A stretch of DNA of 16,518 nucleotides from a virus (lineage: Duplodnaviria > Heunggongvirae > Uroviricota > Caudoviricetes), in the IMG/VR virus record IMGVR_UViG_2526164609_000012. One strand, written 5' to 3'. Positions 7,344 through 8,875 of the stretch are shown here, one piece after another. Position 1 is the first letter of the stretch; every line of letters begins with the position of its first letter. A program made the translations under genes and the position numbers. The notes under the pieces were generated by a model. That model had not been told where the DNA came from. It searched no databases and saw only the letters and a program-made list of their open reading frames with translations.

Positions 7344-7565
7344 ATGGCAAAGATCCGATATCTGCAGGGCACGCATGATGCCCGGGCCGGGGATATCCGT
7401 GATGTGGCACAGCCGTGCGCGGAGGTGCTGGTTCGCCTGGGAAAGGCGGAGTACATCACGGTGCGACGTCCGGCAGGTCAGAAAAAGAAACGTGATGCGG
7501 AGCATGGCGAATGTGGAACCTTTTACAGCGAACCCGAAAAAAACAGAAATCAGGACGTGACGTAA
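7344..7565 (+). CDS. hypothetical small ORF between capsid and portal genes
   Basis: 73-aa ORF with ATG start and no recognisable motif; overlaps the portal start in another frame. Weak support. Confidence 0.15.
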   Translation: MAKIRYLQGTHDARAGDIRDVAQPCAEVLVRLGKAEYITVRRPAGQKKKRDAEHGECGTFYSEPEKNRNQDVT

Positions 7566-8875
7566 GAGAGGCGGGCTGGACCAGCCTGTTTCAGGCGGTG
7601 GCTGAGCCCTTTTCCGGCGCCTGGCAGCAGGGCGTGAAAGCCGATCCGGAAGCCGTCCTCTCCTTTCATGCGGTGTTTTCGTGCATTTCGCTGATATCCC
7701 AGGATATCGCCAAAATGCGGCTGCGTCTTATGCAGACGGATGCGCAGGGGATACGCAGGGAAACTCGACGGGGGGATATTGCCCGCCTCTGTCGTCGTCC
7801 CAACGCCCAGCAGAACCGCATCCAGTTTTTTGAACTGTGGCTGAACGCCAAACTGCGTCACGGCAATACGGTGGTGCTGAAAATCCGTAACTCCCGGGGG
7901 CAGATCAAAGAACTGCGCATTCTGGACTGGAGCCGGGTTGAACCACTGGTGGCGGATGACGGCGAAGTGTTCTACCGCATCACGCCGGACCGGAACTGCG
8001 GGATCACTTAGGCGGTGACGGTGCCTGCCCGGGAAGTGATCCACGACCGGTTTAACTGTTTTTTTCATCCGCTTATAGGGTTGCCGCCGGTGTATGCCGC
8101 CGGGCTGGCCGCCACGCAGGGGCATCATATTCAGGAAAATTCGACGTATTTTTTCAGAAATGGCGGCATGCCGTCCGGGGTGATTGAGATCCCCGGCAGT
8201 ATTACGGAAGAAAATGCGAAAAAACTGAAGAGCAACTGGGACAGCGGGTATACCGGCGAAAATGCGGGGAAAACGGCCATTCTGAGCAACGGGGCAAAAT
8301 ACAACCCCACGACGTTTTCACCGGTGGATGCGCAGACGGTGGAACAACTGAAGATGACCGCTGAAATTGTCTGTTCGGTGTTCCGTGTCCCGGCCTACAA
8401 GATTGGCGTGGGACAACCGCCTTCCAGTGACAACGTGGAGGCGCTGGAGCAGCAGTATTATTCCCAGTGCCTGCAGACGCTGATTGAGTCCATTGAACTG
8501 TTACTGGATGAGGCGCTGGAAACGGGGGAAAACGAGAGTACAGAATTTGATGTCACCACGCTGCTGAGAATGGACAGTGAGCGGCGCATGAAAACGCTGG
8601 GGGATGCGGTGAAAAATACGCTTCTCACGCCCAATGAGGCCCGTAAACGGGAGAACCTGCCGCCCCTGGCCGGCGGTGATGCACTGTATCTTCAGCAGCA
8701 GAACTACAGTCTGGAGGCACTGTCCCGTCGTGATGCCCGTGAGGATCCGTTCGCGTCGACCGGGAAAACGGCCTTAGCGCAACCGCCTGACGGCGCATCT
8801 GACGGTAATAAGGCAATCAGTGAAACAGAGCATGATGCGGTGAAAGCGATGTTCAGGGGGATTCTGAAAAAATGA
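7511..8875 (+). pseudogene. portal protein interrupted by an in-frame TAG stop
   Basis: ORFs 7511-8011 and 8015-8875 are in the same frame, separated only by TAG at 8009-8011. N-terminal piece (WTSLFQAVAEPFSG...AVFSCISLISQDIAKMRLRLMQ...DGEVFYRITPD) and C-terminal piece (NWDSGYTGENAGKTAILSNGAKYNPTTFSPVDAQTVEQLKMTAEIVCSVFRVPAYKIG) together look like an HK97-family portal of about 453 aa. Confidence 0.8.

Follow-up and report, generated by a model that had tools for sequence, protein, structure and literature searches.

An amber codon splits the portal gene of a prophage of the Shigella boydii/dysenteriae lineage, and it almost certainly arose as a spontaneous G-to-T transversion that changed Glu167 (GAG) of an HK97-family portal into TAG. 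The stop lies within a stretch of DNA of 16,518 nt that is here referred to as "the window." The prophage is a decaying remnant with at least four disabling lesions, of which this stop is one, and the portal copy that carries it is a pseudogene of the HK97 portal family, not a functional member.

An amber codon interrupts a single portal reading frame

The preliminary description of this DNA reported that a TAG at 8009-8011 divides two open reading frames (ORFs) lying in the same frame, and translation of the region confirmed this. The ATG at 7511, the TAG at 8009, a GTG at 8015, and the TGA at 8873-8875 share one frame (coordinate = 2 modulo 3). Translation of 7511-8875 gives 455 codons, among which codon 167, in the context ATC ACT TAG GCG GTG, is the sole internal stop. 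Listed separately, the two ORFs of the region are 7511..8011 (166 aa) and 8015..8875 (286 aa); gene calls in the 10 carrier assemblies described below start the C-terminal part at the ATG at 8090, which yields a product of 261 aa. With normal termination, the N-terminal fragment of 166 aa is expected to be the sole portal product. The features of the gene are the following.

7511..8875, plus strand: HK97-family portal pseudogene (translation, PF04860, TIGR01537)
7511..8008, plus strand: N-terminal 166-aa portal fragment (PF04860 profile positions 2-105)
8009..8011, plus strand: nonsense codon TAG, ancestrally GAG (Glu167), G-to-T at 8009 (alignment with relatives)
8012..8872, plus strand: remainder of the portal gene, 287 sense codons (PF04860 profile positions 110-321)

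The two halves had also been described as parts of one HK97-family portal, and the profile matches, which continue across the stop, agree. The N-terminal fragment aligns with Pfam PF04860 (Phage_portal) over profile positions 2-105 (E=1.5e-22) and the C-terminal fragment over positions 110-321 (E=7.5e-53); because the halves fall on consecutive stretches of the same profile, their juxtaposition is not a matter of chance. When the TAG was read as Glu, the repaired protein of 454 aa matched NCBIfam TIGR01537 (portal_HK97), an equivalog model with a curated cutoff of 112.05 bits, at 352.3 bits and over its full length (profile positions 2-343 of 343). The repaired protein is also similar to the solved chains 9lbn_H ("portal protein gp1"; E=3.6e-30) and 8cez_A ("Portal protein"; E=5.4e-20) and to Rhodobacter 6tba ("Phage portal protein, HK97 family"; E=1.1e-10). 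Codon 167 sits at an indel-rich place in the alignments to solved portals. Thus, the gene shares with HK97-family portals (TIGR01537/PF04860; 8cez_A, 9lbn_H, and 6tba) a full-length profile match and similarity to solved chains; it differs from them in that this copy is broken at codon 167, leaves no uninterrupted ORF for the whole portal, and cannot encode the complete protein.

The ancestral codon is GAG

Alignment with intact homologous portals, which the preliminary description had proposed as a check, identifies the ancestral codon at 8009-8011 as GAG. All three homologues in a four-way alignment have GAG opposite the TAG of the window, as do 85 of 85 independent relatives at codon 167, of which 80 are IMG/VR loci and 5 are annotated loci. 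The lesion is accordingly a substitution of T for G at 8009. The same 85 relatives answer the suggestion that homologues might have two separate genes here, since each reads through this position as one gene, and the earlier view of a simple nonsense lesion in an HK97-family portal is upheld as a change from GAG to TAG.

The closest E. coli prophage copies are 99.7 to 99.8% identical to the window region at the nucleotide level. Compared with the intact copy of E. coli CUPS TF 6/1_01, the portal gene differs at 3 nt, which correspond to K11N, a silent change at R86, and E167*. Portal DNA is 97% identical to that of the Stx phages BP-4795, YYZ-2008, and 2851. More broadly, the lambdoid Stx-converting and related prophages (BP-4795 ORF58, YYZ-2008 gp54, 2851, and vB_EcoS_phi330) are 95 to 97% identical to the window over 1.7 kb of nucleotide sequence and are syntenic with it; they differ from it in that all those examined have GAG at codon 167 and an unbroken portal ORF.

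We searched 5,426 complete E. coli genomes and 50,697 phage records with a 61-mer centered on the TAG, requiring exact identity. There was no 100% match among the 1022 matching records from the E. coli genomes or among the 47 matching records from the phage set. The version of the 61-mer with G at 8009 matched 84 E. coli records exactly. An exact 38-mer across the TAG gave 0 hits in the GTDB representatives, a set that holds one genome per species and in which Shigella strains are not separate representatives.

The amber allele is shared across a Shigella lineage

We fetched 10 independent public assemblies (the complete genomes CP026807.1, CP026834.1, and CP026840.1, one 4.3-Mb contig, drafts, and two Logan raw-run assemblies), and all of them match the 1365-nt portal sequence of the window at 100% identity, with the stop in place. 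The exact 166-aa fragment occurs in 135 index blocks of public assemblies and on 111 contigs that carry the name S. boydii or S. dysenteriae. It has been deposited as a "phage portal protein" from both (CAM4197354.1 from S. boydii; VDG93987.1/UniRef100_A0A3P6M5A2 from S. dysenteriae), and the C-terminal part has been deposited separately (CAM4197316.1).

A one-base difference from relatives looks like an error, and we considered whether the true gene is intact and the TAG stems from sequencing or assembly. There is next to no chance that this is so: the same 1365 nt with the TAG recur in the 10 independent assemblies, four megabase-scale chromosomal sequences among them, the 166-aa fragment is found on 111 contigs, and a G-to-T change outside any homopolymer is untypical of platform errors. 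Because the TAG-bearing portal is identical in all 10 carriers, we regard it as a real mutation that is fixed in the lineage.

Up to position 16167, identity between the window and CP026807.1 is 99.98%, and carriers differ from the window by 0 to 25 scattered substitutions plus small indels per 10 to 16 kb. One 162-nt repeat unit, equivalent to one 54-aa repeat of the ORF downstream of the portal, is also missing from two carrier loci (L014 and L015). Common to all 10 carriers are a capsid gene split into 132 aa and 512 aa, the TAG, and a 118-aa major tail stub. This pattern fits vertical inheritance, with the lesions shared by descent within the host lineage. No publications on the carrier accessions, CP026807 among them, were found in a literature search.

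Two small differences set the window apart from the other loci. A T after position 11442, in the intergenic region between gp17 and the major tail gene, is absent from the window and present in the 10 other carriers and in a relative with GAG (L017). An extra A at position 20 of the window is absent from the five carrier loci that cover that position. Given these two differences, the window derives from a strain distinct from the fetched carriers.

Further lesions in the prophage

Three other genes of the window are disrupted by the features below.

5363..7299, plus strand: prohead protease-major capsid fusion gene, frameshifted by a 1-nt deletion (tblastn frames 2 and 1, alignment)
11799..12566, plus strand: IS1, 768 bp, in the major tail subunit gene (homology break, InsA and IS1 transposase Pfam hits)
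13732..16518, minus strand: IS66-family element near the start of the tape-measure gene (DDE_Tnp_IS66 and TnpB_IS66 hits)

Alignment of the protease-capsid gene with intact relatives reveals that one base is missing in the G run at 5681-5684, inside the S78 protease domain. The intact homologue is a protein of 645 aa comprising Peptidase_S78 and Phage_capsid domains, and the frameshift reduces it to ORFs of 132 aa and 512/535 aa. The IS1 copy is complete and is bordered by a 9-bp target duplication, TAAATTCCT, at 11790-11798 and 12567-12575 (the ends were read directly); it cuts the major tail protein into residues 1-112 and 110-238. In the tape-measure gene, the match to intact relatives stops at 13731, approximately 11 codons into the gene, and in CP026807.1 the gene picks up again beyond the IS66-family element. 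That element is itself broken from 16168 by an IS3-family element, as indicated by divergence from CP026807.1 after 16167 and by an HTH_Tnp_1 OrfA, which we take to be IS911-like. The nested insertion is present in the window and not in CP026807.1 or three other carrier genomes. On the left side of the prophage in complete carrier genomes, an IS3-family transposase adjoins the lysis cassette.

Several sister strains carry private lesions of their own. Two (L008 and L010) have a G-to-A change at 5130 that cuts the large terminase subunit (TerL) to 497 aa; another (L009) has 1-nt deletions that split TerL (window equivalent 4618) and gp17 (window equivalent 11123); and a fourth (L013) has a 10-bp deletion in the HNH endonuclease gene (window equivalent 2740-2749). 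These private lesions show that decay is ongoing.

Several independent inactivating lesions thus fall in essential morphogenesis genes (capsid, portal, major tail, and tape-measure), as befits a defective prophage. The lesion pattern is what relaxed selection on such a prophage in an IS-rich Shigella genome would be expected to produce. IS-driven pseudogenization has been described in Shigella (PMC8072062). In combining several IS insertions with point lesions, the usual pattern of prophage decay in IS-rich Shigella, the prophage resembles other E. coli and Shigella prophages that are defective or cryptic.

The head module and the junction downstream of the portal

TerS and TerL occupy 3081-5299 (TerL itself 3638-5299) and are followed, in order, by the protease-capsid fusion (5363-7299), a 73-aa ORF, the portal, and a repeat protein (8872-9933), 3' of which lie Phage_connect_1, a head closure protein, an HK97 gp10-like protein, and gp17. 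The portal gene is located in a head-morphogenesis module together with the large terminase and an HK97-type protease and capsid; the prophage that carries this module is lambdoid and Stx-phage-like and resides in the S. boydii/dysenteriae lineage. The presence of TerL, an S78 protease-capsid fusion, Phage_connect_1, head closure, and HK97 gp10-like genes is a likeness to HK97-family portals and their surroundings. The module differs from HK97-family systems in its unusual order (TerL, protease-capsid, small ORF, portal) and in the repeat protein placed 3' of the portal, which in many relatives is fused to it.

The 73-aa ORF (7344-7565; phrog_829) is conserved and is hypothetical in the annotation of all relatives. 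It overlaps the portal start by 55 nt in a different frame.

The repeat protein is encoded by an ORF that we call X.

8872..9933, plus strand: downstream 353-aa repeat-containing ORF X (phrog_2271, phrog_1289, 162-nt tandem repeat)

The start of ORF X overlaps the portal stop (ATGA at 8872-8875), and X lies in the -1 frame relative to the portal. The junction could be read in 76 relatives, of which 41 have a run of five Gs (G5) and separate ORFs and 35 have six (G6). The window has G5 (8856-8860) and keeps portal and X apart; G6 fuses the two into a product of approximately 860 aa (YYZ-2008 gp54, WP_000267296.1), and phrog_2271 is likewise a "portal" of 859 aa. The portal limits given in the preliminary description, 7511-8875, are consequently right at the 3' end for the present haplotype and do not extend to the whole family, in which G6 relatives read on. 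Both run lengths occur in two flanking haplotypes, and G5 copies are flagged as "frameshifted" by PGAP. The variation may reflect sequencing noise in the homopolymer, repeated gain and loss of the fusion, or programmed -1 slippage at AGG GGG A. A search of the literature gave no relevant description of a portal frameshift in phages of the BP-4795 type.

Within ORF X, a 162-nt (54-aa) tandem repeat spans 9097-9467 in 2.3 copies with a motif of the IPxPxDG type. The length of the protein varies with repeat number, from 299 aa (L014 and L015) through 353 aa (the window) to 461 aa (BP-4795). The C-terminal region has a weak, subthreshold match to CBM_5_12. ORF X matched no curated family, and its "portal" label in PHROGs is by association only.

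Predicted consequences of the stop

Release factor 1 would terminate translation at codon 167 and leave a fragment of 166 aa that should hold approximately the first third of the portal domain, ending at profile position 105 of 321. Parts of the channel ring would be absent from this fragment, which would then be unable to form the dodecameric portal vertex, and the loss of the portal ring would make both DNA packaging and tail attachment impossible. The mutation probably became fixed because selection on the prophage for making particles was absent or had ceased, and the change may have been neutral.

In HK97, shells can still assemble without a portal, and DNA packaging and tail joining are blocked. 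The earlier statement that the stop abolishes head assembly unless suppressed would thus apply to filled, tailed particles, which are predicted to be lost, and not to shell assembly as such. As an account of why assembly fails, it is correct that the TAG is disabling; it is not the sole reason, given that the capsid, major tail, and tape-measure genes are also hit.

Could the stop be suppressed by a host amber tRNA, or be leaky enough that sufficient full-length portal is made and the gene remains conditionally functional? Each virion needs just 12 portal copies, so that little readthrough product might suffice, and codon 167 lies in an indel-rich spot where a replaced residue might be tolerated. 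Even so, we consider this very improbable. A stop is found at this codon in 0 of 85 independent relatives, which is not the conservation expected of programmed readthrough, and it is limited to one Shigella lineage. A tRNA scan found no tRNA genes in the 16,518-nt window or in four 20.5-kb loci around the portal gene, a span that takes in the 20-kb flanks. TAG also terminates normal genes in the window, namely, those for lysozyme (stop at 581-583) and tail chaperone G (stop at 13344-13346). Finally, a full-length portal could not rescue a prophage with broken capsid, major tail, and tape-measure genes, and the disruption of those three genes makes the question of suppression moot.

Two other routes to a longer or second product were rejected. 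Reassignment of TAG is contradicted by its use as the closing codon of the lysozyme and tail chaperone genes. Reinitiation at the GTG at 8015 would lack a Shine-Dalgarno sequence at proper spacing, there being only an AGG two bases upstream.

It is also conceivable that the fragments now serve a new function and are retained for it, either as a dominant-negative N-terminal fragment that poisons portal rings of superinfecting lambdoid phages or as halves that are made separately (from GTG 8015 or ATG 8090) and complement each other. The portal pseudogene has undergone no further change in any of the 10 carriers, and the break falls in an indel-rich region. We nevertheless hold this reading to be highly unlikely, in that approximately 4 kb of sequence (5196-9158), within which the frameshifted capsid gene lies, varies just as little (a single SNP, in one strain) and the GTG at 8015 is without a properly spaced Shine-Dalgarno sequence. 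We know of no precedent for portal fragments kept in a new role. The apparent hint of exaptation in the conservation of the portal was rejected on the same comparison: the portal has 0 SNPs, but the adjacent frameshifted capsid gene has just one, in one strain, and because the two are equally invariant, the unchanged portal reflects low divergence within the lineage and not selection. A specific form of the idea, in which the 166-aa fragment or both halves are retained to disrupt portal-ring assembly by incoming Stx-like lambdoid phages, is just as improbable, and nothing positive supports it. If it were true, a retained portal fragment would represent defense by a prophage remnant through a dominant-negative structural fragment.

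Implications

The reading that we prefer, a nonsense mutation in a portal gene, adds an ordinary pseudogene of a known family (HK97-type portal) in a known setting (a defective lambdoid Shigella prophage), and none of our results speaks against it. An amber codon in a phage portal gene, as in lambda Bam, is a packaging-null, suppressor-dependent genotype. The present allele is like such classical portal amber mutants in having one amber codon in the portal gene; it differs from them in being natural, fixed in a lineage, and accompanied by other lesions, and it is not a conditional-lethal laboratory allele.

Shigella is a genus known for IS expansion and the accumulation of pseudogenes, and the portal stop is one further example of a point lesion in one of its defective lambdoid prophages, a matter of little consequence in itself. 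In practical terms, the two "phage portal proteins" in the databases, both of them fragments, are to be read as a single pseudogene, and the TAG, taken together with the frameshift in the capsid gene and the site of IS1, provides a lineage marker for a S. boydii/dysenteriae clade. For the biology of the prophage, the finding means that particles are not to be expected from it on its own.
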